From assembly GCA_016179225.1 (NCBI GenBank), contig JACORV010000039.1:1-49920 (forward strand): a DNA stretch of 49,920 nt, given 5' to 3'. The notes below the pieces were generated by a model. The model saw only the letters and a program-made list of their open reading frames with translations, ran no database searches and was not told the origin of the DNA. This document shows positions 6,758 to 20,652 of this stretch, piece by piece. A program made the position numbers and the translations under genes. How positions within the stretch are numbered: position 1 is the stretch's first letter; each line of letters begins with the position of its first letter. This DNA comes from Gemmatimonadota bacterium (GTDB lineage Bacteria > Gemmatimonadota > Gemmatimonadetes > Gemmatimonadales > JACORV01).

Positions 6758-7903
6758 ATGGATTTCTCGTGGTCCGACGAGCAGCTCGAGCTGTACCGCT
6801 CGATCGCGTCGTTCGCGCAGAAGGAGCTGAACGACCACACGGTCGAGCACGATCACGCCGGGATCTTCCCGCGCGACCTGTGGCGAAAGGCGGCGGAGTT
6901 CGGCATTCTCGGCCTCCCCTTCCCGGAGGAGTACGGGGGGAGTGGGCAGGACATTCTCACGACGCTCTTTGCGCTGGAGGCGCTGGGTTACGGCTGCCGG
7001 GACAACGGCCTGATCTTCGGCCTCAACGCGCAGATGTGGGCCGTCCAGACACCGATCGTCCGCTACGGCAGCGACGCGCAGAAGCAGGCGTACCTCCCCA
7101 AGCTGATCTCCGGCGCCTGGATTGGCGCGCACGGCATGACCGAGCCCGACGCGGGATCGGATGCCTTCGCGCTCTCCACCGCCGCCGTGAAGCGCGGCGA
7201 CCGGTACGTGCTCAACGGCACCAAGATCTTCACCTCCAACGCGCCTACCGCCGACCTCTTCCTGATCTTCGCGACGATGAACAGGAAGCGCGGCTTCATG
7301 GGCATCACCGCGTTCCTGATCGACAAGGGGACGCCGGGGCTCTCCGTGAGCAAGCCGATCGAGAAGATGGGGCTGCGCACCTCGCCCATGGGCGAGGTGG
7401 TGCTCGAGAATTGCGAGGTGGGCCCCGACCAGCGGCTGGGACGGGAAGGGAACGGCGGGACGATCTTCAAGCACTCGATGATGTGGGAGCGGTGCAGCAT
7501 CCTGGCGAGCTATGTGGGGACGATGCAGCGCCAGATCGAGGTGTGCACGAGGTATGCCAAGGAGCGCCGCCAGTTCGACAGCCCGATCGGCGCGTTCCAG
7601 GCGGTGTCCCATCGTATTGTCGATATGAAGGTTAGGCTTGAGTCGGCACGTCTCTTGCTATATCGTGCAGGTTGGCTGCGGGCCCGCGGCGAAGAAGCGG
7701 GAATGGAGGTCGCGATGGCAAAGCTGTACCTGAGCGAGGCCGCGGTGCAGAACGCTCTGGACGCGATCCAGGTCCATGGCGGCTACGGCTACACGACCGA
7801 GTTCGGAATCGAGCGGGAGCTCCGGGACGCGGTCGGCGGCAGGCTGTACTCCGGCACCTCCGAGATCCAGAAAGAGCTCATCGCGGGCGCCCTCGGCCTG
7901 TGA
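6758..7903 (+). CDS. Acyl-CoA (or acyl-ACP) dehydrogenase family flavoprotein
   Basis: 381 aa. GGAAGGAG Shine-Dalgarno upstream of the ATG. Motifs GAHGMTEPDAGSD, YVLNGTKIFTSN, and C-terminal ...GGYGYTTEFGIERELRDA..IYSGTSEIQ. Confidence 0.9.
   Translation: MDFSWSDEQLELYRSIASFAQKELNDHTVEHDHAGIFPRDLWRKAAEFGILGLPFPEEYGGSGQDILTTLFALEALGYGCRDNGLIFGLNAQMWAVQTPIVRYGSDAQKQAYLPKLISGAWIGAHGMTEPDAGSDAFALSTAAVKRGDRYVLNGTKIFTSNAPTADLFLIFATMNRKRGFMGITAFLIDKGTPGLSVSKPIEKMGLRTSPMGEVVLENCEVGPDQRLGREGNGGTIFKHSMMWERCSILASYVGTMQRQIEVCTRYAKERRQFDSPIGAFQAVSHRIVDMKVRLESARLLLYRAGWLRARGEEAGMEVAMAKLYLSEAAVQNALDAIQVHGGYGYTTEFGIERELRDAVGGRLYSGTSEIQKELIAGALGL
7645..7659 (+). promoter_or_regulatory. Candidate internal sigma-54 promoter embedded in the acyl-CoA dehydrogenase CDS
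   Basis: GGCACG-tctc-TTGCT. The 31-nt block 7637..7667 is 27/31 identical to the intergenic promoter block 14825..14855. Local codons are unusually A/T-ending. Confidence 0.5.
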
Positions 7904-7956
7904 CGGGACCGGCCGGGTCAGACTTTCTAACCGCTTTCTGAGAGAAACCGAATCGC

Positions 7957-8199
7957 ATGACCGCCGAGAAGATCAGGACGTTCATCACGCAGATGTCCAT
8001 GGACGCAAGCGGGAGCGCCATCGCCGACGACACGCCGCTGCTGGACTCCGGCGTCATGGATTCGATGGGGGTGCTGGAGCTCGTGACGTTCCTGGAGTCC
8101 GAGTTCGGAGTCAAAGTCCAGGACGAGGAGATCGTTCCCGAGAACTTCGAGACGGTGGTCCGCATCGCCGCGTTCGTCGAATCCAAGAAGCGGGGCTAG
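7957..8199 (+). CDS. Acyl carrier protein (copy A)
   Basis: 80 aa. The phosphopantetheine-site context is LLDSGVMDSMGVLELVTFLE. About 65% identical to the 16182..16442 product. Confidence 0.85.
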   Translation: MTAEKIRTFITQMSMDASGSAIADDTPLLDSGVMDSMGVLELVTFLESEFGVKVQDEEIVPENFETVVRIAAFVESKKRG

Positions 8200-8411
8200 G
8201 CGCGCCCGGTCTGGCCGCCGCCGTAGCGCCGCAGCCGCCCCGGACCTGGCGCGCCGCCCCCAGGGCGGACGCGGCGCCGCGGCGCGCGCTCGCGAGTCTC
8301 GGCGACTTCCTCTACCTGCTCTATCCGCTGCTTCCGCGAAGCTGGATCTTCGCCACGGCCAGGCTCCGGGGCACGCTCCAGGACCTGCTGCGCACGCGGG
8401 CGCGACGCATC

Positions 8412-9221
8412 GTGCGCGCCAACTACGCCACGCTGTTCCCGGACCGGACCGCGGCCGAACTCGACGCGCTGACGCGGCGGTTCCTCCAGAACCAGCAGTC
8501 TCAGAACCTCCTGGTGATGCTCGCGTCGCGGCTCCGGACCGAGGAGCTGGCGCGCCTGGCACCGTTCGAGCGGCTGGACCGCCTCGAGTGGGCGCTGGCG
8601 CAGAAAAAGGGCGTAATCGTGCTCGTCTCGCACATCAACTCAGCGTCGTTCTTCGCCGGGAACGTGTGGCTGCGGCGGTCCGGCTTCGACGTGCGCGTGG
8701 CGATGCCCATCGTGCGCGACCCGTGGGACCGGACGTGGCTCAGGATTCTTGCCGACGGCATCGCCGGCATCGCGCCGATCAAGGACCAGCTGGGGTGCTT
8801 CTACTGCCAGTTCAACTTGCGGCCCATCGTCGAGCGCCTGAAGGAAGGCGCCGCGGTGGCCCTCACCGGCGACGGCTGGCATTCGGCCGGCTTCGTCGAG
8901 GTCGAGTTCCTGGGCCGCAAGGTGCCGTTCACCACCGGGGCGCTCTCTATCGCCCGGTCGAGCGGTGCGGTCGTGGTGCCGGTGTTCGCCACCGGGGCGC
9001 CGCCCGACCGCCTGCGGTTCGTGTTAGAGGAGCCGTTCACCGTCTCGCGTGAGGGGCCCTCCAAGCGCGCCGTGCAGGCGGCGGCGACGGCGTACGCCTT
9101 GCGCGTCGAGCACCACCTCTTGCGGAATCCGGCGTCGTGGCAACACTTGCTGGAGGAGGATGTGTTTGAAACGATGGCGACCTGGCAGCAGCGGACCCTG
9201 ACGGAGCGGTACGACCTGTAG
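8412..9221 (+). CDS. LpxL/HtrB-like acyltransferase, copy 2 (start uncertain)
   Basis: In-frame homology to copy 1 already begins near 8290 (DFLYLLYPLLPRSWIFATARLRG). However, no ATG/GTG/TTG exists in frame between the ACP stop (8199) and GTG 8412. Contains VLVSHINSASF. Confidence 0.7.
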   Translation: MRANYATLFPDRTAAELDALTRRFLQNQQSQNLLVMLASRLRTEELARLAPFERLDRLEWALAQKKGVIVLVSHINSASFFAGNVWLRRSGFDVRVAMPIVRDPWDRTWLRILADGIAGIAPIKDQLGCFYCQFNLRPIVERLKEGAAVALTGDGWHSAGFVEVEFLGRKVPFTTGALSIARSSGAVVVPVFATGAPPDRLRFVLEEPFTVSREGPSKRAVQAAATAYALRVEHHLLRNPASWQHLLEEDVFETMATWQQRTLTERYDL

Positions 9222-9231
9222 CGGGGACCGG

Positions 9232-10428
9232 ATGATGGATGTGCCGCGGTCGTGTGACGTCGTCGTGATCGGAGGCGGTCCCGGCGGCAGCCTTGGGGCG
9301 ACATACCTGGCCCGGAAGGGGTACGACGTGGTGCTGCTCGACAAGGAGAAGCACCCGCGCTACCGGGTGGGCGAGAGCCTCATCCCGCACATGTGGAAGT
9401 ACCTCCGCCTCGGCGGGGCCGAAGAGAAAATCCTGAACGACGGATTCATCAAGAAGACGGGCGGCACCGTGATCTGGAACGGAGTCATCCGGGAGCTCGT
9501 CTTCGGCCAGTTCGGGTTCGACCGGCCCGCTATGCACGTAGAGCGCGACCGCTACGATCAGATCCTGTTCGAGCACGCCAAGGCGCAGGGCGTGCGGGCC
9601 TTCGAAGAGATGACGGTGCTGGGCGTGGACCTTAACGGCGGCGAGCGACCGTCGGTGCGGTTCCGCGCGGCGGGTGACGACGCGGTGGGGACGATCGCCT
9701 GCCGGTACGTGATTGACGCCAGCGGGCAGAACGCGGTCATCGCCAAGCAGCTCGGTGTTCGCGAGATCGATGAGGGCTTCCGGTTCATGAGCCTGTGGGG
9801 GTACTTCCTCGATTCGAAGTACGTGGCCCTGGGCGGCAAGGTGCACCCGTTCAAGGACCTCAACCAGACGCCGCCCACGACGTTCGTGTGCTCCGTGGAT
9901 GAGCTGGGCGAGTGGGGATGGCTGTGGCACATCCCCCTGCGTGAGAGCACCAGCATCGGCCTGGTGGTGCCGGTCGAGCAGCTGCAGGTGGTGAAGAAGA
10001 GCGACGAGGCGCTGGAGAAGTACTTCCTCCGGAAGTGCTACGAAGTTTCCTATCTCGGAAGGCTGCTGGAAGGCGCGACGTACCTCGAGGGCAGCTTCCA
10101 CGTCATTCGCGACTACTCCTACCGAACCAGCCTTTACGCCGGGCCTGGGTTCTACCTGGTCGGCGACGCGGCAGCCTTCGTAGACCCGCTCTTCTCGGTG
10201 GGCGTCGTCTTCGCGATGTACTCGGCGTTCGCGGCGAGCTGGGCGGTAGACCGTTCGCTGCGCCGCCCCGAAATCGCGGAGAGCAACCGCGCCATCTTCT
10301 CGCGCCAGATCTCGGGCCGGCTCGAGGTCGCTCGCGCGCTCGCGCTCCCGCGCTACGCCAAGTTGGAGAGGCCAGCGACTTCGCTCGGCTGTCCATCCAG
10401 TTCGAGAGCGCGCTGGAGAAGGAGCTGA
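9232..10428 (+). CDS. FAD-dependent halogenase-like oxidoreductase, copy A. Apparently frameshifted near 10363-10366, with the homologous C-terminus continuing in another frame to 10547.
   Basis: GGGPGG dinucleotide-binding motif, GFIKKTGGTVIW lysine region, WLWHIP (9919..9936) and GDAAAFVDPLFSVG. The tail of ORF 10035..10547 (FESALEKELMYTVASLSTRGDN) aligns with the copy B C-terminus (PLLRERLIVLFSGGYDKID). Confidence 0.75.
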   Translation: MMDVPRSCDVVVIGGGPGGSLGATYLARKGYDVVLLDKEKHPRYRVGESLIPHMWKYLRLGGAEEKILNDGFIKKTGGTVIWNGVIRELVFGQFGFDRPAMHVERDRYDQILFEHAKAQGVRAFEEMTVLGVDLNGGERPSVRFRAAGDDAVGTIACRYVIDASGQNAVIAKQLGVREIDEGFRFMSLWGYFLDSKYVALGGKVHPFKDLNQTPPTTFVCSVDELGEWGWLWHIPLRESTSIGLVVPVEQLQVVKKSDEALEKYFLRKCYEVSYLGRLLEGATYLEGSFHVIRDYSYRTSLYAGPGFYLVGDAAAFVDPLFSVGVVFAMYSAFAASWAVDRSLRRPEIAESNRAIFSRQISGRLEVARALALPRYAKLERPATSLGCPSSSRARWRRS

Positions 10429-10617
10429 TGTACACCGTCGCGTCGCTCTCCACGCGCGGCGACAATCTGCTCGACTTGGTCGCGGACGAAGGCAGAGAAA
10501 AGATCACGGCCAAGCGGTTCAACGTCATCAAGGAACTGACGTTCTAGCCGGCCGCCGGGGCGTCACGCCTAGGGGCGCCGGTTGCACCGCTACCACGTTC
10601 AGAAAAGGCCCACTGCG

Positions 10618-10806
10618 ATGATTCGGGAGAGTCTGGCTCGGGTATGGCGGGAGCATCGCCGCGCGGTGCTGGCGGCGGCGATCCTCGCCTGGACGGTTGG
10701 GATCGTGTTCGCGTACCAGAAGGTCAAGCCGAAGCTGCCAGCGGGGATGGCGACGCCGCCCCCGGGCGCCCGGGTCCTGGAGGTCGGCGCGCTGCCGGTA
10801 ACCTGA
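10618..10806 (+). CDS. Small signal-anchor ORF ending at TGA. Probably the N-terminus of the downstream substrate-binding protein (see findings).
   Basis: MIRESLARVWREHRRAVLAAAILAWTVGIVFAYQKV... has one TM helix. It is in frame with 10831..11754. The ORF is open from TTG 10582. Confidence 0.5.
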   Translation: MIRESLARVWREHRRAVLAAAILAWTVGIVFAYQKVKPKLPAGMATPPPGARVLEVGALPVT

Positions 10807-10838
10807 AACCTCACCGGCCCGATCGCCTGTATGGCGAT
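10804..10838 (+). other. In-frame UGA plus downstream hairpin: candidate Sec recoding element (copy A)
   Basis: TGA 10804-10806. Stem ATCGCC 10822-10827 pairs with GGCGAT 10833-10838, with loop TGTAT. It lies within a 64-nt block (10777..10840) that is 62/64 identical to 16617..16680. Confidence 0.4.
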
Positions 10839-11754
10839 GCAAAACGGGACCGACAGCGTGATGGGCGGGATGGCGATGGAAGAGGGCGACAGCCTTGTCA
10901 TACCCGACAGCCTCGGGAACATGGTCGCGCGTTTCACCCGCTACAGCGGGTGGCCCGAGCTCAAGGAAGCGTTGCTCGCGGGCCGGGTGGGCGCCGCCTA
11001 CCTGCTCGCCCCGCTGGCGATGGACCTCGCGGACCGGGGCCTGCCGGTGCGCGTCGTCGCGCTCGGCCACCGTTCCGGCGCGGTCATCATGGTCAAGAAG
11101 GACAACGCCGCCCGCAACCTCGGCGATCTGCGCGGCAAGCGCGTGGCGATCCCAAGCCGCTTCGCGGTGGATCACCTCTTCGTGCGGCGGCTGATGCAGC
11201 AGCACGGCCTGCGCGACGGCGACCTCACGTTGGCCGAGATGGCCCCGCCGGACATGCCGGCCGCCCTTTACGCGGACGCGGTGGATGCCTACGCCACGGG
11301 CGAGCCGTTCGGCGCGCAGGCGGAGCGGGACGGGTACGCGCGCGTCCTTCACTCGACGCGGACCGACTGGCCGAACTACATCTGCTGCGTGCTGGCCGTC
11401 CGGACCGACATGATCCAGCAGGTGCGCCCGGTCGTGCAGCGTCTGGTGGACGACGTCATGTCCGCCGGCGTGTGGCTCGATCGTGACTCCCTGAACCGGG
11501 TGCAGGCCGCGCGGATCGCCGGCCGTCCGGAGTTCTTCAACATGGATCCATCGCTCATCCAGTACGTGCTCGAGCATCCGCACGACCGGGTGACCTACGG
11601 CGACCTCCGCCTCATCCGCACCGAGCTGGACGAGCTGATGAACCTGGCCCTCACGGCCCGGATCATCCAGCACCCGATTCCGTACGAGACGTACGCGGAC
11701 GAGAGCTTCATGCGGCGCCGCCGTCACCGGGAGATACGTTTTGTCGGGCAGTAA
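10831..11754 (+). CDS. ABC transporter substrate-binding protein, NMT1/SsuA/TauA-like (copy A). Conservative ATG-initiated coordinates.
   Basis: 307 aa, with GDLRGKRVAIPSRFAVDHLFVRRLM and YATGEPFGAQA typical of nitrate/sulfonate/taurine-type SBPs. This ORF has no signal peptide of its own. Confidence 0.85.
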   Translation: MAMQNGTDSVMGGMAMEEGDSLVIPDSLGNMVARFTRYSGWPELKEALLAGRVGAAYLLAPLAMDLADRGLPVRVVALGHRSGAVIMVKKDNAARNLGDLRGKRVAIPSRFAVDHLFVRRLMQQHGLRDGDLTLAEMAPPDMPAALYADAVDAYATGEPFGAQAERDGYARVLHSTRTDWPNYICCVLAVRTDMIQQVRPVVQRLVDDVMSAGVWLDRDSLNRVQAARIAGRPEFFNMDPSLIQYVLEHPHDRVTYGDLRLIRTELDELMNLALTARIIQHPIPYETYADESFMRRRRHREIRFVGQ

Positions 11755-12502
11755 GTGGAGGACGCTGATCCCCGTCGCGGTGGTCGCGGCCCTGGTGGCG
11801 GGGTGGTGGGCGGCGGTGGTGAAGACGCACACGCCTTATTTCCCGACCCCCTGGCAGGTCGCCGCGGGGATGGCGGAGCTGGCGCGCAACGGCACGCTGG
11901 TGCAGCACGTCGTGGCGTCGCTGATGCGCGTGACTGTCGGGTACGGGATCGCGGTCATGGTCGCGATCCCGCTCGGCGTGCTGATGGGATGGTTCGGCGG
12001 GCTCTACCTCGCGCTCAATCCCGTCATCCAGATGCTGCGTCCGATCTCGCCGATCGCGTGGATCCCGCTCGCCATCCTCTGGTTCGGCGTCGGCAACCTC
12101 TCGCCGATGTTCCTCATTTTCCTGTCGTCGTTCTTCCCGATGGTGGTCGGGACGGCCTCCGGCGTGCACAGCGTGGACCGGCAGTACATCCGCGCCGCGC
12201 GGAACTTCGAGATCACCGGGCACCGCCTACTCCGCCAAGTGGTGGTGCCCGCCGCGCTGCCGCAGATCATCGTCGGCATGCGGCTCGGCCTCGGCATCGC
12301 GTGGCTCGTCGTCGTCGCGGCGGAGATGGTCGCGCTCGATTCGGGCCTCGGCTACCTGATCATCGATTCGCGCAACGCCGGCAACCGGTACGACCTCGTG
12401 GTCGCGGCGATGGTCATCATCGGCGTGATCGGGTTTCTCCTCGATACCCTCATGCGACGCCTCGAGCGGCTCGAGGAAGTGGCCTGGCGCTATGCCCGGT
12501 AG
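11741..12502 (+). CDS. ABC transporter permease (SsuC/TauC/NrtB-type, copy A)
   Basis: 253 aa with about 6 TM helices. EAA-like loop RAARNFEITGHRLLRQVVVPAALPQI. TTG start overlaps the SBP stop by 14 nt. Confidence 0.9.
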   Translation: MSGSKWRTLIPVAVVAALVAGWWAAVVKTHTPYFPTPWQVAAGMAELARNGTLVQHVVASLMRVTVGYGIAVMVAIPLGVLMGWFGGLYLALNPVIQMLRPISPIAWIPLAILWFGVGNLSPMFLIFLSSFFPMVVGTASGVHSVDRQYIRAARNFEITGHRLLRQVVVPAALPQIIVGMRLGLGIAWLVVVAAEMVALDSGLGYLIIDSRNAGNRYDLVVAAMVIIGVIGFLLDTLMRRLERLEEVAWRYAR

Positions 12503-13280
12503 CATTTCCGCGAAGGGCCTCTTCAAGGCGTTCCCCACGCCGAAGGGCCCGCTCCCGGTCATCGAGGACCTGAGCCTCGACATCGCGGACGGAGAGTTCG
12601 TCGCGCTCATCGGGCCGTCGGGGTGCGGTAAGTCGACCTTCCTCGACATCCTGGCGGGGTTCGAGCGCCCGGATCGGGGGTCGCTGGCCGTGGACGGGCA
12701 GCCCATCGTGGGCCCCAGCCGCAAGCGGATCCTGATCCCCCAGCAGACGTCGGTTTTCCCGTGGCAGAGCGCGCGCCGGAACCTGACCTTCGTGCAGGAT
12801 GGCGTGACCGAGGAAGAGAAGAAGAGGCTCTCGCTCGACTACGTGAACCTGGTCGGGCTCGAGGGATTCGACCAGACGTATCCGCACCAGCTCTCGGGCG
12901 GGATGCTGAAGCGCCTCGAGCTCGCTCGGGCGCTGATCGTGAAGCCGGACATCCTGCTCATGGACGAGCCGTTCGGCCCGCTCGACGCGCTCACCCGCAT
13001 CCGACTCCATGCCGAGCTGCTCCAGATCCTCTCGGTGGAGCGGCACACCACGCTATTGGTGACGCACGACGTGCACGAGGCGCTCTATCTGGCGGACCGC
13101 ATCGTCGTGTTCACGCCGCGGCCCGCGCGCATCCAGTGCATCGTGGACGTCCCCTTCCAGCACCCCCGCGCCCTGGTGGGCGGAGACATCGTGCGGCTCA
13201 AGGCCCGGATCCTCGTGGAGCTGGGCCTCTCGCCTGACGGGAGCTTCGACCGGAGCAAGCGACCCGCCTCTGGCGGATGA
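12492..13280 (+). CDS. ABC transporter ATP-binding protein (copy A)
   Basis: Walker A GPSGCGKST, signature LSGGMLKR, Walker B ILLMDEPF, H-loop VTHD. Confidence 0.9.
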   Translation: MPGSISAKGLFKAFPTPKGPLPVIEDLSLDIADGEFVALIGPSGCGKSTFLDILAGFERPDRGSLAVDGQPIVGPSRKRILIPQQTSVFPWQSARRNLTFVQDGVTEEEKKRLSLDYVNLVGLEGFDQTYPHQLSGGMLKRLELARALIVKPDILLMDEPFGPLDALTRIRLHAELLQILSVERHTTLLVTHDVHEALYLADRIVVFTPRPARIQCIVDVPFQHPRALVGGDIVRLKARILVELGLSPDGSFDRSKRPASGG

Positions 13281-13307
13281 GGCTCCCGCCGGCGCAGCGC
13301 CTAACGC

Positions 13308-14708
13308 CTACAACGTGAACTGTAGTGTCAGGTAGCCGAAATCGACCCCCTTGCTGGGGCCGGACTGCCGGATGAACTCGCCTGGCCAGCAGTGGCTGTA
13401 TCCCGTCACGACCAGCAAGTGGCGGCCCACCGGGTACCGTACGGTCACGTCGAGCTCGGAGCCGATGTCCTTGGACGTGCCGGCGGCTCCGGATCGAACG
13501 GCGCCCGCTGGTGGTGGCAGGAAAGGCGCAAGCGGGCCATACAGGCCGTCTTTCCCGCTGGCGCGCTGGAAACGGTGGAAGTCCACCGCGGTGCTCACCG
13601 CACGCCGCAGCCGGACCGATAGCCCGCCGCTCAGATCCACCACGTTCTGTCGTCCCGCCACGTCCATGAAGCCCAGATACGCGTGTGCGAGCGGAAAGAG
13701 CTGGTTGAACGTCTGCACGTCGGCGACTGCGCTGTCCTTGTCGCCGCTCGCGTAGTCCAGGTTGAGGTAGACGCGCGGCGCGCCCCGCACCTGGGGCAGG
13801 CTGTACCCGACCTGACCCGCAAACATGTACGCGCGGATCTTCCCCGGGCCGACTGTTCCAAACTGCCATGCGGCCTCGGCCTCGTAATCCAGGCGGGCTC
13901 CCTGGCGGGTCGGCCCCCACACGCGCGCGCCGATGGTCTGGCGCTCTTCGCGTCCTGCCGTTCCATTGAACCTGGCGCTGGCCCGCCGGAGGCCCAGCCA
14001 GTAGGCGTCCACCCCGATCACGGTGCGCGGCGGTCTCGCGGTCGCGTACAGGCCGTAGAAAGTAGTCGCCGAATCGCGCTCGTTGAATTCGTACTTGTTG
14101 ACGAGAACCGGACGGGTGAGAAACGCGCTCACGGCGCCGCTCGGGAACGAAAAGGACCCGGAATACCCCTCGAACGTGCGCCTGGTATTCGTCCAGTCGA
14201 GCGGGCTGATCAACCGCTCGCGGCCGTAGGCGAGCTCTTGCCGCCCCACCCGAAATGCGAGCGCTCCAGATCCGGCATGTGGGAATCGAAGCTCGCCGTA
14301 GAATTGTTGGAGATCGAGCTCGTCTTGATCGACGACCCTGATACCGCCCTGGAGCGAGCGGCTGTCGACGGTGGCGCTCTTGCCTTGGACGAAAAACCTG
14401 AGACGGTCGTAGACGTGCAGGTCGGCGGACAGGAAGAGGCGTGTCAGCGTGAAGAAGTCGTCGTGGTCGGCCGTAGGGGGAGCCCCGAAGTTGAAGCCGG
14501 TCCAGCTCTCCACCCGCTCCCTAAGCTGCCCGCCGAATCCGACCCAGAGCCCTCCGCCGGAGCTGAGCCGGACGTGTTTGATCGTGTCAAACCGGTCCCG
14601 TGGCTGGGCCTGCTGGGCGAAAAGCCCGAAGGGGCCGAGCGTCAGCGCAACAGCTGTGGCGCCAGCCCACCTCCAAGCCCATGGAAATGCCGGAAAGGCA
14701 GTCGGCAT
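13308..14708 (-). CDS. Outer-membrane beta-barrel protein, alginate-export (AlgE-like) family
   Basis: The ORF is open to 14816. I prefer ATG 14708 because it has a GGGAGG SD 5 nt upstream and gives a signal peptide MPTAFPAFPWAWRWAGATAVALTLGPFGLFAQQ. The sequence has an alternating beta-strand pattern, with FGGQLRERVESW and a C-terminal ...YLTLQFTL. Confidence 0.65.
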   Translation of the reverse strand: MPTAFPAFPWAWRWAGATAVALTLGPFGLFAQQAQPRDRFDTIKHVRLSSGGGLWVGFGGQLRERVESWTGFNFGAPPTADHDDFFTLTRLFLSADLHVYDRLRFFVQGKSATVDSRSLQGGIRVVDQDELDLQQFYGELRFPHAGSGALAFRVGRQELAYGRERLISPLDWTNTRRTFEGYSGSFSFPSGAVSAFLTRPVLVNKYEFNERDSATTFYGLYATARPPRTVIGVDAYWLGLRRASARFNGTAGREERQTIGARVWGPTRQGARLDYEAEAAWQFGTVGPGKIRAYMFAGQVGYSLPQVRGAPRVYLNLDYASGDKDSAVADVQTFNQLFPLAHAYLGFMDVAGRQNVVDLSGGLSVRLRRAVSTAVDFHRFQRASGKDGLYGPLAPFLPPPAGAVRSGAAGTSKDIGSELDVTVRYPVGRHLLVVTGYSHCWPGEFIRQSGPSKGVDFGYLTLQFTL

Positions 14709-14782
14709 CCGGCCTCCCAGAAGATGTTGATCCAGGCCAACCTGCGACGGCGGACCAAGTATCGTGATGGGTGTTACTGCCG

Positions 14783-14796
14783 GCAACTCTCGTGCC
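14783..14796 (-). promoter_or_regulatory. Candidate sigma-54 promoter for the outer-membrane barrel gene
   Basis: The reverse complement of 14781-14800 reads ATAGGGCACG-AGAG-TTGCCG. The GC element lies 75 nt upstream of ATG 14708. Confidence 0.55.
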
Positions 14797-14832
14797 CTAT
14801 CATATTGGTGCCGCATAGGTTAACCTTGATCG

Positions 14833-14847
14833 GGCACGCCTCTTGCT
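14833..14847 (+). promoter_or_regulatory. Candidate sigma-54 promoter for the 14922..20652 operon
   Basis: GGCACG-cctc-TTGCT, 75 nt upstream of GTG 14922. It diverges from the - strand promoter 37 bp away. Confidence 0.6.
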
Positions 14848-14921
14848 ATATCGTGGGGCGATTTTTTTGTCGGCCCCAGCTGGAGCCCGCAACCCGATAC
14901 TTGGATTCGAGAAGGGAAGTC

Positions 14922-16169
14922 GTGAGCGCAGAGCGATTCGACGTCATCGTCGTGGGCGGAGGTCCGGGTGGCACGAGCACCGGCATCATGCTCGCCAAGC
15001 GGGGCTACAAGGTGCTCCTCCTCGAGCGGGAGCGATTCCCGCGTTTTCACATCGGTGAGTCGCTGCTCCCGGCGCTGTGGGACCTCTGGGACGAGCTGGG
15101 CGTCACGGCGGAGATGGAAGCGGTCGGCTTCGTCATCAAGCAGGGCATCAACTTCGCGATGTTCGAGCCGCCGACCGAGATCGCGCTCCTCACGGGCGAG
15201 TTCCCGCGCTACTTTCAGCGGCCGTACACCTACCACGTCGAGCGGGCCAGGTACGACCAGATCATGCTCGAGCACGCCCGGCGCTGCGGCGTGGACGCGC
15301 GCGAGGAGTGGACGGTCGAGGACGTGCTGTTCGAGGGGGACCGGTGCGTCGGCGTGGTGGCGGGCCCGAACGGCCAGCCGGGCCAGCCGTACCACGCGCC
15401 CATGGTGGTGGACGCGACGGGCCGCAACTGCCTGATGTCGCGCAAGCTGGGGTGGCGCAAGCCCGACCCCACGCTGAACAAGCTTTCCCACTTCACGCAC
15501 TACCAGGGGGCGGACCCTCGGGACCACGATGGTACGACGATGACCGAGATCCACAGCATCGACGGCGGGTGGATCTGGTACATCCCGCTCACCGGCGACA
15601 TCGTGAGCGTGGGCGCCGTGCTCGACGCGAAGGCCTTCGGGAGCCAGAAGGGCCCGCAGGCGCGCTTCGATCACGCGGTGGCGGGCTGCCCGAAGATCCG
15701 CGAGTGGGTCGAGGGCGCGCGCCAGACGATCGACATGCACACGATCTCGAACATCTCCTATCTGAACGACAGCTTCGTCGGCAACGGGTTCGTGCTGGTG
15801 GGCGACGCCTCGATGTTCGTGGACCCGATCTTCTCCGCGGGGGTGACGATCGCCGTCCGCGGCGGCATCTTCGCGGCCGAGTGCATCCACGACTGCTTCC
15901 AGCGCGGCGACTTCAGCGCCGAGCGGATGAGCCCCTACGAGGCCAGGATCCGGCTCCCGATGAGCCGCATCTTCAGGATGATCTACAACTGGTACGGGAT
16001 TCTGGAGAAGAAGGACCCGAACAATCTCATCGCCCGGTCCCGCCGCGTCCCGCTGCTGCGCGAGCGGCTCATCGTGCTCTTCAGCGGCGGCTACGACAAG
16101 ATCGACATGGAAGCCATCCTGCAGGCAGCAGGTGCCGACGCCCAGGGCAACCCGCTCCAGCCCGCGTGA
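14922..16169 (+). CDS. FAD-dependent halogenase-like oxidoreductase, copy B
   Basis: This is the C-terminal 415 codons of ORF 13683..16169. GTG 14922 follows GAAGGGAAG. Motifs VVGGGPGGTSTG, GFVIKQGINF, WIWYIP (15570..15587) and GDASMFVDPIFSAG. Confidence 0.85.
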   Translation: MSAERFDVIVVGGGPGGTSTGIMLAKRGYKVLLLERERFPRFHIGESLLPALWDLWDELGVTAEMEAVGFVIKQGINFAMFEPPTEIALLTGEFPRYFQRPYTYHVERARYDQIMLEHARRCGVDAREEWTVEDVLFEGDRCVGVVAGPNGQPGQPYHAPMVVDATGRNCLMSRKLGWRKPDPTLNKLSHFTHYQGADPRDHDGTTMTEIHSIDGGWIWYIPLTGDIVSVGAVLDAKAFGSQKGPQARFDHAVAGCPKIREWVEGARQTIDMHTISNISYLNDSFVGNGFVLVGDASMFVDPIFSAGVTIAVRGGIFAAECIHDCFQRGDFSAERMSPYEARIRLPMSRIFRMIYNWYGILEKKDPNNLIARSRRVPLLRERLIVLFSGGYDKIDMEAILQAAGADAQGNPLQPA

Positions 16170-16181
16170 GGATCATTCCGC

Positions 16182-16442
16182 ATGTCCGCTGAACAAAGGC
16201 TACTGACCTTCCTCGCCCAGACCTTCCCGCGCGAGGAGGGCAAGGCGATCACGCCCTCCGATCCGCTGCTCGACGAGGGGCTCATCGATTCGGTCGGCAT
16301 CTTCGAGCTGGTGGCGTTCATCGAGCGGGACTTCGGGGTGAACGTGCAGGACGAAGAGATCGTGCCCGAGAATTTCGAGACGGTGGCGCACATCGCGCGC
16401 TTCGTCGAGCGGAAACAGCAGGCCCGCTCGACCGCGAGCTAG
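16182..16442 (+). CDS. Acyl carrier protein (copy B)
   Basis: 86 aa, with LLDEGLIDSVGIFELVAFIE and the same VQDEEIVPENFETV tail as copy A. Confidence 0.85.
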   Translation: MSAEQRLLTFLAQTFPREEGKAITPSDPLLDEGLIDSVGIFELVAFIERDFGVNVQDEEIVPENFETVAHIARFVERKQQARSTAS

Positions 16443-16475
16443 ACGCGCCTCGCCGCGTCTCCACGGAGGAAAGTC

Positions 16476-16646
16476 TTGAATCGTCTGTACCGCGAGCACC
16501 GGCGCGCCGTCCTCCTGGTCGCCGTGCTGCTCTGGGTCGTCTTCATCACCGTCGTCTATCAGCTCAGTAAGCCTCGAGACGTGAGCGCGCTGCCGCCCGG
16601 CACGCCGGCCCTGACGCTGGAGGTCGGCGCGCTGCCCGTCACCTGA
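16476..16646 (+). CDS. Small signal-anchor ORF ending at TGA. Probably the N-terminus of the downstream substrate-binding protein (copy B).
   Basis: TTG 16476 lies 5 nt after GGAGGA (16465-16470). Translation: (M)NRLYREHRRAVLLVAVLLWVVFITVVYQLSKPRDVSALPPGTPALTLEVGALPVT*. In frame with 16671..17597. Absent from the ORF track because it is under 60 aa. Confidence 0.5.
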   Translation: MNRLYREHRRAVLLVAVLLWVVFITVVYQLSKPRDVSALPPGTPALTLEVGALPVT

Positions 16647-16678
16647 AACCTCACCGGCCCGATCGCCTGTATGGCGAT
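16644..16678 (+). other. In-frame UGA plus downstream hairpin: candidate Sec recoding element (copy B)
   Basis: TGA 16644-16646. The stem-loop is identical to copy A: ATCGCC 16662-16667 pairs with GGCGAT 16673-16678. Confidence 0.4.
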
Positions 16679-17597
16679 GCGCATGGAGGCTGGTCAGGAC
16701 ATGGCGGGGATGGAGATGACGGGGGGCGGGGACAGTCTGCGGGTCGAGGAGCGCGGCGTCGCGCTGGTGGCGCACTTCACGCGCTACAGCGGATGGCCCG
16801 AGCTGAAGGAAGCCTTCATCGCGGGCAACGTCGGTGCGGCGTACCTGCTGGCGCCGCTGGCGATGGACCTGGCCGACCGGGGCGTGCCGGTCCGCATCGT
16901 CGCGCTCGGCCACCGGTCAGGTGCCGTGATCATGGTACGGAAGGACAGCCCGGCACGGAACCTGGGCGACTTGCGCGGCAAGCGGGTGGCGATCCCAAGC
17001 CGGTTCGCCGTGGACCACCTCTTCGTCCGCCGGCTGATGCGGCAGCACGGCCTGCTTGACGGGGAGGTGCAGCTGGTCGAGCTCGCGCCGCCGGACATGC
17101 CCGCGGCCCTCTACGCGGACGCCGTGGACGCCTACGCCACGGGGGAGCCGTTCGGGGCGCAGGCGCAGCGCGAGGGATACGCCCGGGTGCTCCATTGGAC
17201 CCGCGACGAATGGCCGGACTACGTCTGCTGCGTGCTCGCGGTGCGGACCGACCTCATTCGGGATGTGCGTCCGCTGGTGCAACGGTTGGTGGACAACGTG
17301 CTCTCGGCGGGGGTGTGGCTGGAGGGCGACTCGACCAACCGGCTCCGGGCCGCCGACCTCGCGGCGCGGCCGGAGTACTTCAACCAGGACCCGGCGCTGC
17401 TGCGGTTCGTGCTGACGAACCCTCGGAACCGGGTGACGTACGGCGACCTGCGGCTGATCCGTCCACAGCTCGAGGAATTAATGAACCTGGCGCTCGAGGC
17501 GCGCGTCATCGACCACCCGATCCCGTACGAGACATATGCGGACGAGAGCTTCCTTCGCGCCTATCGGCCCAGGGAGATCCGCATTGAGCAGAGATAG
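16671..17597 (+). CDS. ABC transporter substrate-binding protein, NMT1/SsuA/TauA-like (copy B)
   Basis: 308 aa, about 80% identical by eye to copy A across the domain. No signal peptide of its own (MAMRMEAGQDMAGMEMTGGGD...). Confidence 0.85.
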   Translation: MAMRMEAGQDMAGMEMTGGGDSLRVEERGVALVAHFTRYSGWPELKEAFIAGNVGAAYLLAPLAMDLADRGVPVRIVALGHRSGAVIMVRKDSPARNLGDLRGKRVAIPSRFAVDHLFVRRLMRQHGLLDGEVQLVELAPPDMPAALYADAVDAYATGEPFGAQAQREGYARVLHWTRDEWPDYVCCVLAVRTDLIRDVRPLVQRLVDNVLSAGVWLEGDSTNRLRAADLAARPEYFNQDPALLRFVLTNPRNRVTYGDLRLIRPQLEELMNLALEARVIDHPIPYETYADESFLRAYRPREIRIEQR

Positions 17598-18345
17598 CCG
17601 GTCCGATTTCTGGCCGTTCCTCCTCGTCGGTCTCCTGATCGCGGGCTGGTGGGTATCCGTGGTGGTGTCGAAGACGCCGTACTTCCCCACGCCGTGGGCG
17701 GTCGTGCTGGGCATCGTCGAGCTGGCGCGCAACGGCACGCTGGTGCAGCACGTCTCGGCGTCCCTGATGCGGGTGACTTACGGCTACCTCGCGGCCGTGG
17801 CCATCGCCATCCCGCTCGGCGTGCTCATGGGTTGGTTCGGTCGGGTGTACCGGGCCGTCAATCCGCTCATCCAGCTGCTGCGGCCGATCTCGCCCATCGC
17901 GTGGATCCCGCTGGCGATCCTCTGGTTCGGGGTCGGCAACCTCTCGCCGATGTTCCTCATCTTCCTGTCGTCGTTCTTTCCGATGGTCACGGGCACCGCG
18001 GCCGGCGTGCACACGATCGAGAAGCAATACATCCGCGCGGCGGAGAACTTCGGGATCAGGGGGGTGCGCCTGCTGCGGCAGGTGGTGCTGCCCGCCGCGC
18101 TGCCGCAGGTCATCGTCGGGATGCGTCTCGGGCTGGGGATCGCCTGGCTGGTGGTCGTCGCGGCGGAGATGGTCGCCATCAATTCGGGACTCGGTTACCT
18201 CATCATCGACTCGCGCAACGCGGGAAACCGGTACGATCTCGTGGTCGCGGGGATGGTGCTCATCGGCGTGATCGGGTTCCTGCTCGACATCGCCATGAGG
18301 AGCCTCGAGGGGCTGGACGAGGTGAGGTGGCGGTATGTCCGGTAG
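17584..18345 (+). CDS. ABC transporter permease (copy B)
   Basis: The ORF is open from ATG 17536. TTG 17584 reproduces the 14-nt overlap geometry of copy A. Highly similar to 11741..12502. Confidence 0.85.
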   Translation: MSRDSRSDFWPFLLVGLLIAGWWVSVVVSKTPYFPTPWAVVLGIVELARNGTLVQHVSASLMRVTYGYLAAVAIAIPLGVLMGWFGRVYRAVNPLIQLLRPISPIAWIPLAILWFGVGNLSPMFLIFLSSFFPMVTGTAAGVHTIEKQYIRAAENFGIRGVRLLRQVVLPAALPQVIVGMRLGLGIAWLVVVAAEMVAINSGLGYLIIDSRNAGNRYDLVVAGMVLIGVIGFLLDIAMRSLEGLDEVRWRYVR

Positions 18346-19087
18346 CATCGTCGCCACCGGGATCCACAAGAGCTTCTCCTCCAGGCAGGGCGCGCTCTCG
18401 GTCATCGAGGGCATCGACCTCAGCGTGGCGGATGGCGAGTTCGTCGCGCTGGTGGGGCCGTCGGGGTGCGGAAAGTCGACGCTGCTCGACATCCTGGCCG
18501 GCTTCGTGAGGCCCGACCGCGGTGAGGTGCAGATCGACGGCGAGCCGGTGGGGAGTGCGAACCCGCGCCACATCCTGATCCCGCAGCAGCCGTCGGTGTT
18601 CCCGTGGCTCACCGCGCGCCGCAACATCACCTTCGTGCTCGACGGCGTGCCGGACGGGGAGCAGCGGCGGCTCGCGTTCCATTATCTCGACCTGGTGGGC
18701 CTCGAGGGCTTCGACCAATCGTACCCGCACCAGCTCTCCGGGGGGATGGTCAAGCGCCTCGAGCTGGCGCGCGCCCTCGCGGTGAAGCCGGACGTGCTCT
18801 ACATGGACGAGCCGTTCGGCGCGCTCGACGCCCTCACCCGGCGCAAGATGCGCGACGAGCTGCGCCGGATCCTCCTGGTCGAGCGGCACACCGCGCTGCT
18901 CGTCACCCACGACGTCGAGGAAGCCCTGCACCTGGCCGACCGCATCGTCGTCATGTCGCCGCGCCCGACCAAGATCCAGTGCATCGTCGACGTGCCGTTC
19001 CCGCACCCACGCAGGCTGGTAAGTGTCGAGATGATTAGGCTGGCGGCCCTCATCCTCTCCGAGCTGGGCGTCGAAACGGAGTCGTGA
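18335..19087 (+). CDS. ABC transporter ATP-binding protein (copy B)
   Basis: Walker A GPSGCGKST, signature LSGGMVKR, Walker B VLYMDEPF. Confidence 0.9.
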   Translation: MSGSIVATGIHKSFSSRQGALSVIEGIDLSVADGEFVALVGPSGCGKSTLLDILAGFVRPDRGEVQIDGEPVGSANPRHILIPQQPSVFPWLTARRNITFVLDGVPDGEQRRLAFHYLDLVGLEGFDQSYPHQLSGGMVKRLELARALAVKPDVLYMDEPFGALDALTRRKMRDELRRILLVERHTALLVTHDVEEALHLADRIVVMSPRPTKIQCIVDVPFPHPRRLVSVEMIRLAALILSELGVETES

Positions 19088-20652
19088 TCTACCTCCTCCA
19101 TCACCTGCTGCCCGAAAGCGCGAGCCGGTTCCCCGACCGTACGGCGGTCCGGTTCGGCGAGGACCGGCTCACCTACGCCGACCTGGAAGCGCAGGCCGGC
19201 AGGCTCGCCGCCGCCCTGGTCGAGGCCGGGGTGAAAAAGGGCGACCGGGTCGGAATCCACTTCCACAAGTCGGCGCGGTCGGTGGTGGCCGTATTCGCCG
19301 TGCTGAAGGCCGGCGGCATCTACGTGCCGCTGGACCCCAACTCCCCGCGCGCGCGTATCGCCCGCATCATCGAAGACTGCGGCATCCGGCACCTCATCGC
19401 GTCCCAGGAGAAGCTCGGCGCCCTGATGGCCGGCACGCCGGAGGCCCCGGCGCCGGCGCTGGACGCCGCGTTCCTGGTGGACAGTGAGACGGCCGAGCCG
19501 GGCACGAGCGTGAAGCGGGTCGTGGGGTGGGGCGAAGTGGAGAAGCTGACGCCGCTCGCCGGCCCGGCGGACGGGGTGGACGGCGACCTCTCGTACATCC
19601 TCTACACGTCGGGCTCCACGGGCATCCCCAAGGGCGTGATGATCTCGCACCGGGCCGCGTTCGCCTTCGTGAACTGGACGCACGACGCCTTCGGGATGAG
19701 CGAGCGCGACGTGGTCTCGAACCACGCGCCGCTCCACTTCGATCTCTCGATCTTCGATATCTTCACGACTATCAAGGCGGGCGGGACGGTGGTGCCGGTG
19801 CCGGAGCGCCTCTCGACCTTCCCGGTACGCCTCGCGGAGTTCATCCGCGACCAGCGCATTACCTGCTGGTACTCGGTGCCCTCGGCGCTCACGATGATGC
19901 TGCTCCGCGGCAACCTCGCCAAGCACAGCTATCCGGACCTCCGTCTGGTCCTTTTCGCGGGAGAGGTCTTCCCGGTCAAGTACCTGCGCGAGGTCATGAG
20001 GTGCTTCCGAGCGAGCTTTTGGAACCTCTTCGGCCCGACCGAGACGAACGTCTGCACGGCATACGAGGTGACGGAGCTACCGGAGGATCGGACCGAGCCG
20101 GTGTCCATCGGGAAGGCGATTGGCAACTACGACGTGTTCGCGCTGAATAACCGGGGCGAGATCGCGGCGGTGGGCGAGGAGGGCGAGCTGTACGGTCGGG
20201 GCCCCGGCATCATGTCGGGGTACTGGGGGGACGTCGAGAAGACCGACCGCGTTCTGGTGCCCAACCCGCTGCCCGCGCCCTTCGAGGAGAGGGTGGTCCG
20301 GACGGGGGACATCGTGGTGCTCGAGGCGGACGGCAATTACACCTACCGCGGCCGCCGCGACAACATGGTGAAGAGCCGGGGCTATCGCATCGAGATCGGG
20401 GAGATCGAGACCGCGCTGTACGGCCACGCGAAGATCACCGAGGCCGCAGTGGTCGCGATCCCCGACGAGGAGGTCACGAATCGCCTCAAGGCCTACGTGG
20501 TGACGGACCCACCGGGCGCGCTCAGCGCGCTGGACGTCCAGCAGCACTGCCGCTCTCGCGTCCCCAAGTACATGATCCCCGAGATGGTGGAGTTCCGGGA
20601 TGTTCTCCCGAAGACCTCCACCGGCAAGGTGGACAAGCAGTCTCTCAAGTGA
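19084..20652 (+). CDS. AMP-forming acyl/aryl-CoA (or ACP) ligase, adenylation superfamily
   Basis: 522 aa. Motifs LSYILYTSGSTGIPKGV (A3), YGPTE-like FGPTETN, YRTGD-like VRTGD and C-terminal PKTSTGKVDK. GTGA overlap with the ATPase stop. Confidence 0.9.
   Translation: MIYLLHHLLPESASRFPDRTAVRFGEDRLTYADLEAQAGRLAAALVEAGVKKGDRVGIHFHKSARSVVAVFAVLKAGGIYVPLDPNSPRARIARIIEDCGIRHLIASQEKLGALMAGTPEAPAPALDAAFLVDSETAEPGTSVKRVVGWGEVEKLTPLAGPADGVDGDLSYILYTSGSTGIPKGVMISHRAAFAFVNWTHDAFGMSERDVVSNHAPLHFDLSIFDIFTTIKAGGTVVPVPERLSTFPVRLAEFIRDQRITCWYSVPSALTMMLLRGNLAKHSYPDLRLVLFAGEVFPVKYLREVMRCFRASFWNLFGPTETNVCTAYEVTELPEDRTEPVSIGKAIGNYDVFALNNRGEIAAVGEEGELYGRGPGIMSGYWGDVEKTDRVLVPNPLPAPFEERVVRTGDIVVLEADGNYTYRGRRDNMVKSRGYRIEIGEIETALYGHAKITEAAVVAIPDEEVTNRLKAYVVTDPPGALSALDVQQHCRSRVPKYMIPEMVEFRDVLPKTSTGKVDKQSLK

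Follow-up and report, generated by a model that had tools for sequence, protein, structure and literature searches.

The window analysed here, a stretch of 49,920 nucleotides (nt) on the forward strand of contig JACORV010000039.1 from a Gemmatimonadota bacterium (assembly GCA_016179225.1), carries two paralogous loci for an ATP-binding cassette (ABC) importer, copies A and B, in each of which the gene for the substrate-binding protein contains an in-frame UGA codon. In copy A the frame runs from ATG 10618 through TGA 10804-10806 and the in-frame ATG 10831 to TAA 11752-11754 without any other stop, giving a read-through product of 378 codons plus stop, with TTG 10582 as an alternative start. 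Its N-terminal part (10618-10803, + strand) encodes an arginine-rich n-region (REHRR), one transmembrane helix of the signal-anchor kind, a linker and the segment LEVGALPVT, which corresponds to strand β1 of the binding-protein fold; the remainder (10807-11754, +) is a NitT/TauT-type domain of the Pfam family NMT1_2, with Cys71, a Met-rich insert, His151 (11068-11070) and Cys256-Cys257 (11383-11388), and ends at the TAA at 11752-11754. If read as selenocysteine (Sec), the UGA (10804-10806, +) would be residue 63 of a 378-amino-acid (aa) product and aligns with an invariant Cys of the relatives. Shortly downstream lies a hairpin resembling a bacterial selenocysteine insertion sequence (SECIS; 10822-10838, +), with its stem at 10822-10827/10833-10838 and its loop, UGUAU, at 10828-10832, so that it includes both the Cys71 codon TGT and the apparent start codon ATG 10831. 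Genes for an ABC permease (BPD_transp_1; 11741-12502, +) and an ABC ATPase (12492-13280, +) follow.

Copy B shows the same arrangement. Its N-terminal part (16476-16643, +) begins at a TTG codon with GGAGGAAAG before it and likewise encodes a transmembrane helix, a linker and the β1 segment LEVGALPVT; the UGA (16644-16646, +) would specify residue 57 on a Sec reading, the SECIS-like hairpin (16662-16678, +) is identical in sequence to that of copy A, and the rest of the binding protein (16647-17597, +) ends at TAG 17595-17597. The permease gene (17584-18345, +) is homologous to that of copy A, and by analogy with the latter TTG 17584 is its likelier start in an open reading frame (ORF) that opens at 17536; the ATPase gene spans 18335-19087 (+). 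The two binding proteins are 74% identical, and a 64-nt block around the TGA is identical at 62 of its 64 positions, both differences being synonymous third positions upstream of the TGA, while the 37 nt from the TGA onward are the same in the two copies. An earlier reading of copy A, hereafter the original prediction, had described the in-frame UGA, the open frame to the TAA and the in-frame ATG 10831, all of which we confirm from the sequence. It had also placed 27 nt and nine sense codons between the TGA and ATG 10831; the interval is indeed free of other stops, but without the TGA it measures 24 nt, or eight sense codons (NLTGPIAC).

Comparison with relatives and structure prediction indicate that the UGA is an internal codon just after the first β-strand of the binding-protein fold and not a gene boundary. 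A protein search returned 4889 relatives in two length classes, of ~370-385 aa and ~300-330 aa. At the UGA column, Cys is found in every one of the 24 long-class, full-length homologues that were aligned, and each of these has the layout of copy A in a single ORF, as the original prediction had anticipated for both the aligned Cys and the joined anchor and domain; the column itself sits within the invariant motif G-[AG]-LPVT-(U/C)-NL. The Cys forms are single ORFs with a conserved motif, unlike the pattern of two genes with a non-conserved spacer that was named at the outset as contrary to a selenoprotein. The Pfam profile NMT1_2 matches the read-through protein with 93.4 bits against a cut-off of 24.7, and the match begins only at profile position 34-38 of 252, from which it follows that the N-terminal strand of the domain is absent from the downstream ORF. 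The closest Cys form, P0002, gave an AlphaFold2 model (predicted local distance difference test, pLDDT, 89.7; predicted template-modelling score 0.85) in which the residues RTLEVGA form strand β1 with pLDDT >90, the Cys of the UGA column lies in the loop after β1 with pLDDT ~95, the second Cys falls in helix α1, and the Met-rich insert is disordered. The upstream ORF had been taken for a membrane anchor; the transmembrane anchor stands, but the ORF is not an anchor alone, as its last nine residues, LEVGALPVT, are β1 of the binding protein. ATG 10831, in turn, is an internal codon within the hairpin loop, and its place is taken by AGG, AAG, CAG, ACG or TCG in relatives.

The UGA recurs at the same column well beyond the window. 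Three short database homologues each have a 61-65 aa ORF upstream, an in-frame TGA after ...GALPVT and then NLT.P.AC. Relatives turned up in 470 stretches when one genome per species was scanned, and in the best 80 loci the codon at the UGA column was TGA (27), TGC (50) or TGT (7); these loci were retrieved through peptide patterns far downstream of the column, so the upstream motif was not selected for. The TGA forms belong in their majority to Gemmatimonadota and otherwise to Binatia, Rokubacteria/Methylomirabilota, Vicinamibacterales and Thermodesulfobacteriota; the Cys forms come from Longimicrobium, Burkholderiales (Massilia, Duganella, Pseudoduganella, Undibacterium), Steroidobacteraceae, Lysobacterales and Myxococcota. 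Adding a metagenome scan by sequence pattern, in which TGY was allowed at the second Cys codon, brought the distinct UGA-form sequences to 93. A blind scan of all related loci collected for comparison (1.9 Mb) for in-frame TGA codons with coding-type composition on both sides returned this very site repeatedly, and otherwise scattered sites, of which the one that was checked proved to be an ordinary same-frame junction of adjacent genes. The candidate selenoprotein put forward from copy A alone has thereby gained TGA codons at the same column in independent contigs of several phyla. Two UGA-form loci, L060 (position 689) and L078 (position 1360), read …UNLTLPIAS…, and the U-x7-C pair is accordingly not obligatory.

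The hairpin consists of 6 base pairs, starts 15 nt after the UGA, has a loop of the form UGUNN and places its apical loop 21 nt after the UGA, and in copy A its pairing (ATCGCC 10822-10827 with GGCGAT 10833-10838) is the centroid of the predicted fold. Bacterial SECIS elements have loop-to-UGA spacings of 16-37 nt, and the hairpin falls within this range. Its folding z-scores, -1.6 to -2.0, do not set it apart, and it stands above chance because it is conserved rather than because it is stable. In a comparison of the 93 distinct UGA-form sequences with 56 Cys forms, all six pairs (+18 to +23 with +29 to +34) can form in 91 of the former and in a single one of the latter; paired cells make up 99.5% of the alignment, against 20-54% after a shift of the 3′ partners by 1-3 columns, and none of 500 shuffles equalled the observed pairing or covariation score. 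The pair +20/+32 occurs as C-G (68), U-A (16) and U-G (8) and never as C-A, both of its positions being synonymous third positions (of Ile/Val and Ala codons, respectively), and +18/+34 varies between A-U and G-U. The original prediction of a 6-bp hairpin is thus borne out by its conservation and covariation, which are found in UGA forms only.

The same distinction is seen at single synonymous sites. Third codon positions within the hairpin are invariant in the UGA forms alone, with entropies of 0 bits against 1.37 in the Cys forms at +23 (stem), 0 against 0.75 at +26 (loop) and 0 against 1.58 at +29 (stem), whereas those of the spacer vary freely in both groups (UGA and Cys forms, respectively, 1.60 and 1.70 bits at +11, 1.76 and 1.18 at +14, and 1.66 and 1.32 at +17). 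Furthermore, UGA forms that have the second Cys always encode it by TGT, despite their G+C-rich genomes, and Cys forms mostly by TGC, so that the U-G-U of the loop, with its G-U, is kept where a UGA precedes it. Two metagenome UGA forms have imperfect stems, one with a broken 3′ arm (GGCGCG for GGCGAT) and another with a U-C mismatch at the covarying pair, and may represent decaying copies or alternative pairing. As with the SECIS elements of E. coli fdhF and fdnG, the stem-loop is located in the coding region immediately 3′ of the UGA, and G and U are conserved in its apical loop; it differs from them in its short stem of 6-8 bp, the lack of an obvious bulged U and of an Rfam model, and in that SelB binding is a prediction here.

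As far as sequence comparison can tell, an in-frame UGA, Cys-bearing homologues and a hairpin conserved specifically in the UGA forms are the classic signature of a bacterial selenoprotein, and we consider it very probable that the UGA is a genuine Sec codon within a single gene for a membrane-anchored ABC binding protein. A number of observations weigh against this assignment. No tRNA-Sec gene (selC) was detected by a tRNA scan of the window or by ARAGORN on the 1.9 Mb of related loci, and tblastn searches of both with E. coli SelA, SelB and SelD revealed no selA, selB or selD; four SelB-like matches covered the GTPase domain only, and the one examined, in locus L013, was a fusion of CysN with adenosine 5′-phosphosulfate (APS) kinase and not SelB. 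No selenium-related genes were seen in the remainder of the window either (20653-49920). The portion of the tables of a 2016 survey that we consulted has no Gemmatimonas among the Sec users, and it lists as Sec users some Oxalobacteraceae that yet carry Cys in this binding-protein family. Only one of the six stem pairs shows compensatory change and three never vary; the metagenome pattern fixed part of the 5′ arm, leaving free the 3′ arm, +23 and +26; and the compared sequences share ancestry, for which the shuffle statistics overstate their independence. A permissive Rfam search of 10500-17000 found no SECIS family and two chance-level matches; server-based SECIS prediction failed for accepted bacterial selenoproteins in the work of Haft & Gwadz (10.1101/2022.07.06.499078). 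Ser replaces the second Cys in three UGA forms, so that Cys71 is not essential. Finally, the metal site considered below is a prediction, and at the Sec column the closest structural match (PDB 3UN6) has LPIT-H, where the family has LPVT-U/C, in an N-terminal alignment segment that is weak (3.5 bits); a PDB search with the N-terminal peptide by itself gave no match. Literature searches, which did not extend to supplementary prediction lists, returned no report of Sec use in Gemmatimonadota or of this family as a selenoprotein.

The failure to find Sec machinery in the window or the related loci, and the general knowledge that downstream structures can stimulate read-through in some systems, would suit a programmed, Sec-free read-through of the UGA by a near-cognate tRNA, for example for Trp or Cys, perhaps aided by the hairpin, or a reassignment of UGA in the lineage. 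We regard this as improbable. TGA is the commonest ordinary stop codon of the window and ends most of its genes, which shows that UGA is not reassigned, in agreement with the original prediction on this point; the UGA is exchanged for Cys codons only, and at a site resembling a metal ligand; the position of the hairpin, with its loop 21 nt after the UGA, and the G-U of the loop are as expected for a bacterial SECIS; and the phylogenetically scattered occurrence is that of Sec/Cys families. The gene callers, for their part, have split the locus in all database entries examined, as if a small membrane protein ended at a true UGA stop and a cytoplasmic binding-protein-like gene began at ATG 10831, and most UGA forms do have an ATG or a nearby Met codon downstream. 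Such a pair of genes is nevertheless very hard to credit, since the downstream ORF would be left without β1 of its fold, the invariant domain motif LPVT would end the upstream ORF, and the Cys forms are single ORFs. No Shine-Dalgarno sequence precedes ATG 10831, whereas the upstream TTG of copy B has GGAGG; many relatives lack an ATG at the position of 10831, and at the Met position that comes next the Rokubacteria forms read ATC; and coding constraint in the same frame extends over the spacer.

We give even less credence to the idea that the UGA forms are pseudogenes or sequencing errors. A single substitution does turn TGC into TGA, and the frameshift in the halogenase-like gene next to copy A, described below, signals that either the assembly or the genome is not free of lesions. 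The same codon would, however, have had to change in both paralogues of the window and in 93 distinct sequences from several phyla; the UGA forms retain intact downstream frames, invariant residues of a catalytic type and a dedicated, conserved hairpin, and decay would not freeze synonymous sites in the UGA forms only.

We therefore retain a Sec-encoding single gene as the framework for what follows. In the part of the model that rests on comparative evidence, translation would start at ATG 10618 in copy A or TTG 16476 in copy B and produce the Arg-rich signal anchor, the linker and β1 of a NitT/TauT-type binding protein before the ribosome reaches the UGA, where the 6-bp GC-rich hairpin 15 nt downstream, with its loop G-U, would act as the SECIS that recruits SelB with Sec-tRNA(Sec). 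Sec would be inserted as residue 63 in copy A and residue 57 in copy B and translation would go on to the normal stop, yielding a ~378-aa, outward-facing and membrane-anchored receptor for the ABC importer encoded directly downstream. Beyond this point we infer that the Sec residue, in place of the Cys found in relatives, would sit in the β1-α1 loop at the mouth of the binding cleft and, with Cys71, His151 and Cys256-Cys257, probably form a thiophilic metal site. Its metal would most likely be copper, or else zinc, and would be either the cargo itself or a cofactor holding a soft anionic cargo.

The structural comparison on which this proposal draws has as its best match for the P0002 model PDB entry 3UN6, a zinc-bound ABC binding protein of S. 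aureus (template-modelling score 0.90, normalised by target length; Foldseek E 4e-26), followed by NrtA, SsuA, TauA and CmpA; 3UN6 is the best match by sequence as well (profile E 7e-40). His151 and Cys256-Cys257 are invariant in the family and align with the GHH and CC of 3UN6, and a 2026 study of 3UN6-like binding proteins modelled a metal in them with two Cys and one or two His as its ligands (PMC13592312). Based on these metal models, the shared GH and CC motifs and the weakly aligned His that 3UN6 has at the Sec column, we propose with moderate confidence that Sec63 contributes one ligand to a thiophilic metal site. That the predicted site is thiophilic is suggested by the Sec column, with its His counterpart in 3UN6, together with the conserved His and Cys-Cys, and the Sco1 neighbours or Met-rich inserts described below point to copper. 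The speculative soft-metal site of the original prediction has thus found indirect support in the 3UN6 His column, in His151 and Cys256-Cys257 and in the Sco1 and Met-rich features. The N-termini differ across the family: proteobacterial and myxococcal Cys forms (L030-L084) show signals of the twin-arginine type (RRRxxLQG) with a lipobox Cys after them, and in the Gemmatimonadota forms the transmembrane anchor, with HRR or RHR, looks uncleaved. It is possible, judging from these signals, that the binding protein is exported folded or loaded with its cofactor.

In 53 of the 54 loci with enough flanking sequence the binding protein comes with permease and ATPase genes, and what else stands beside it differs between the two forms. 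Of 40 Cys-form loci, 39 encode a Sco1 homologue no more than 5 kb away, versus 12 of 41 UGA-form loci. The operon in Pseudoduganella has the order binding protein, Sco1/SenC, a 145-aa protein, permease and ATPase, and in locus L083 (10900-11915), as in 38-39 of the 40 Cys-form loci, a Sco1/SenC protein with a CxxxC motif and the 145-aa protein are likewise encoded between the binding-protein and permease genes. The 145-aa partner ends in C-x2-H-x4-M and is cupredoxin-like, and it has no Pfam match. The insert after the second Cys follows a complementary pattern, with a median length of 19-21 aa and a median of 0-1 Met in loci with Sco1, and of 46-48 aa and 8-11 Met in loci without; the two copies in the window, which have no Sco1 neighbour, carry inserts of 34-35 aa with 6 Met each (10831-10932 and 16671-16775). 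This complementarity across loci suggests that the Met-rich loop stands in for the Sco1 partner. Both Sco1 and Met-rich loops are typical of Cu(I) handling. A literature search for a Sco1-linked NitT/TauT transporter returned nothing relevant.

In the window, each transporter copy lies after a flavin-dependent halogenase-like gene with a WxWxIP motif, within a cluster that encodes a carrier protein, an adenylation enzyme, a prolyl-carrier-protein dehydrogenase-like enzyme and LpxL-like acyltransferases. The dehydrogenase-like enzyme scores 473 and 435 bits with the PigA and RedW models, both just under the cut-off. The region 6758-20652 contains a duplicated module made up of a halogenase-like flavin adenine dinucleotide (FAD) enzyme, an 80-86 aa carrier protein, an LpxL-like acyltransferase and the binding protein, permease and ATPase, near which lie the PigA/RedW-like dehydrogenase (6758-7903) and the adenylation enzyme (19084-20652); module and neighbours together resemble a halopyrrole-carboxyl pathway that would feed a lipid or glycolipid. 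The halogenase-like gene by copy A (9232-10547, +) shows a frame change near 10356-10380, where its homology to a 437-aa protein of locus L001 runs from frame 1 into frame 3, and this is either a real frameshift, making the gene a pseudogene, or an assembly indel. Among the loci compared, 7 of 21 UGA forms and 3 of 33 Cys forms have halogenase-like neighbours. The transporter of locus L203 stands among five halogenase paralogues, and one 705-aa ORF (9882-11999) joins its ATPase to a halogenase-like FAD domain; the operon there is flanked by four further halogenase paralogues and by sulfur-activation genes of the APS and 3′-phosphoadenosine 5′-phosphosulfate type. Another locus has a vanadium-haloperoxidase-like neighbour.

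The halogenases of the window in their prolyl-carrier-protein pathway, the paralogues and the fusion in L203 and the vanadium-haloperoxidase-like neighbour have led us to consider a halide importer. In such a system the binding protein would hold Cu or Zn on a selenolate/thiolate/His site and capture a soft anion such as bromide, iodide or chloride to feed the adjacent flavin-dependent halogenases, and loading of the cofactor would fall to Sco1 and the cupredoxin-like partner or to the Met-rich insert. We offer this as a speculative and rather unlikely assignment; we know of no halide ABC importer of such a kind.

Two further features of the surroundings can be added. A gene for an Alginate_exp-type outer-membrane porin lies by the transporter in the window (13308-14816, -) and also in loci L001 and L204, and the porin may give the transporter's cargo passage through the outer membrane. 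The remainder of the window (20653-49920) is an exopolysaccharide/exosortase locus with several glycosyltransferases, the exosortase EpsH, a Wzz/tyrosine-kinase-like protein, a polysaccharide export protein, a sigma-54 response regulator and a GGDEF regulator.

If the Sec assignment is true, the family would be a large and taxonomically broad group of selenoproteins, with members in five or more phyla or classes of bacteria that live mostly in soil, while Sec in transporter binding proteins has until now come mainly from anaerobes. Gene calls for the UGA forms would be systematically wrong, dividing each into a hypothetical protein of 60-75 aa and a binding protein without a signal. The Sec/Cys pair would furthermore show where an uncharacterised family of transporters probably binds its ligand, and the Sco1-like, cupredoxin-like or Met-rich partners of that family would make the idea of a thiophilic-metal, possibly copper-linked, ABC importer open to test; cultured hosts of Cys forms such as Pseudoduganella, Duganella and Undibacterium offer experimental access.

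Among ABC binding proteins of known structure or function, NrtA, CmpA, SsuA and TauA (Pfam NMT1/NMT1_2) share the fold and the operon layout; they lack the set of Cys/Sec, His and CC, and NrtC/NrtA-type proteins have Asp at the Sec column. The SsuA model TIGR01728 gives 97.7 bits against a cut-off of 163.5, below the level for membership, and no NCBIfam model reaches its cut-off on the family. 3UN6 is closer in that it shares the GH motif, the Y-CC-VL motif and LP[IV]T before the ligand column, but it has His for Sec/Cys, neither a second Cys eight residues on nor a Met-rich insert, and is not a selenoprotein. The proteins related to it adjoin clade B carbon monoxide dehydrogenases (PMC6344411, PMC13592312), whereas the partners here are Sco1-like or halogenase-like.

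Sec-containing ABC binding proteins are themselves not without precedent. SaoB and SaoX of the SAO system were first proposed in 2022 (Haft & Gwadz, bioRxiv 10.1101/2022.07.06.499078), and a Sec form of BtuF is listed in PMC13188914; in a 2026 review, SaoB, SaoX and a BtuF form are the only Sec binding proteins given, and term searches of its text found no NMT1_2 (PF13379) family. SaoB and SaoX resemble the present proteins in having Sec in the ligand cleft of the binding protein of an ABC importer, in a gene that is split or cut short by gene callers, in Cys-rich motifs (CC in SaoX) that suggest a soft-metal ligand, and in belonging to the nitrate/sulfonate/taurine transporter group. Membership in either family was considered and rejected, the SaoX model scoring 51.7 bits against a cut-off of 300 and SaoB not being among the matches; the SAO permease SaoP comes closest to the permease here, but with 178.7 bits against a cut-off of 295, and the permease here is without Sec. 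The Sec site differs as well, being T-U-N in the β1-α1 loop here, CU at 71-72 in SaoB and TU at 191-192 in SaoX. So do the neighbourhood and the hosts: none of the SAO families SaoL (MerB-like), SaoE, SaoC, SaoT and SaoD is among the neighbouring genes scanned with Pfam, which are halogenase-like, carrier-protein, acyltransferase or Sco1-like genes instead, and the hosts here are mainly soil Gemmatimonadota and other non-clostridial lineages and not strict anaerobes. Given the SaoX and SaoP scores below cut-off, the different Sec site, the different gene context, the want of an NCBIfam model and the truncation of those UGA-form database entries that were examined, we file these proteins as a predicted new family of bacterial UGA/SECIS selenoproteins of the Sec-bearing binding-protein type, distinct from SaoB, SaoX and BtuF.

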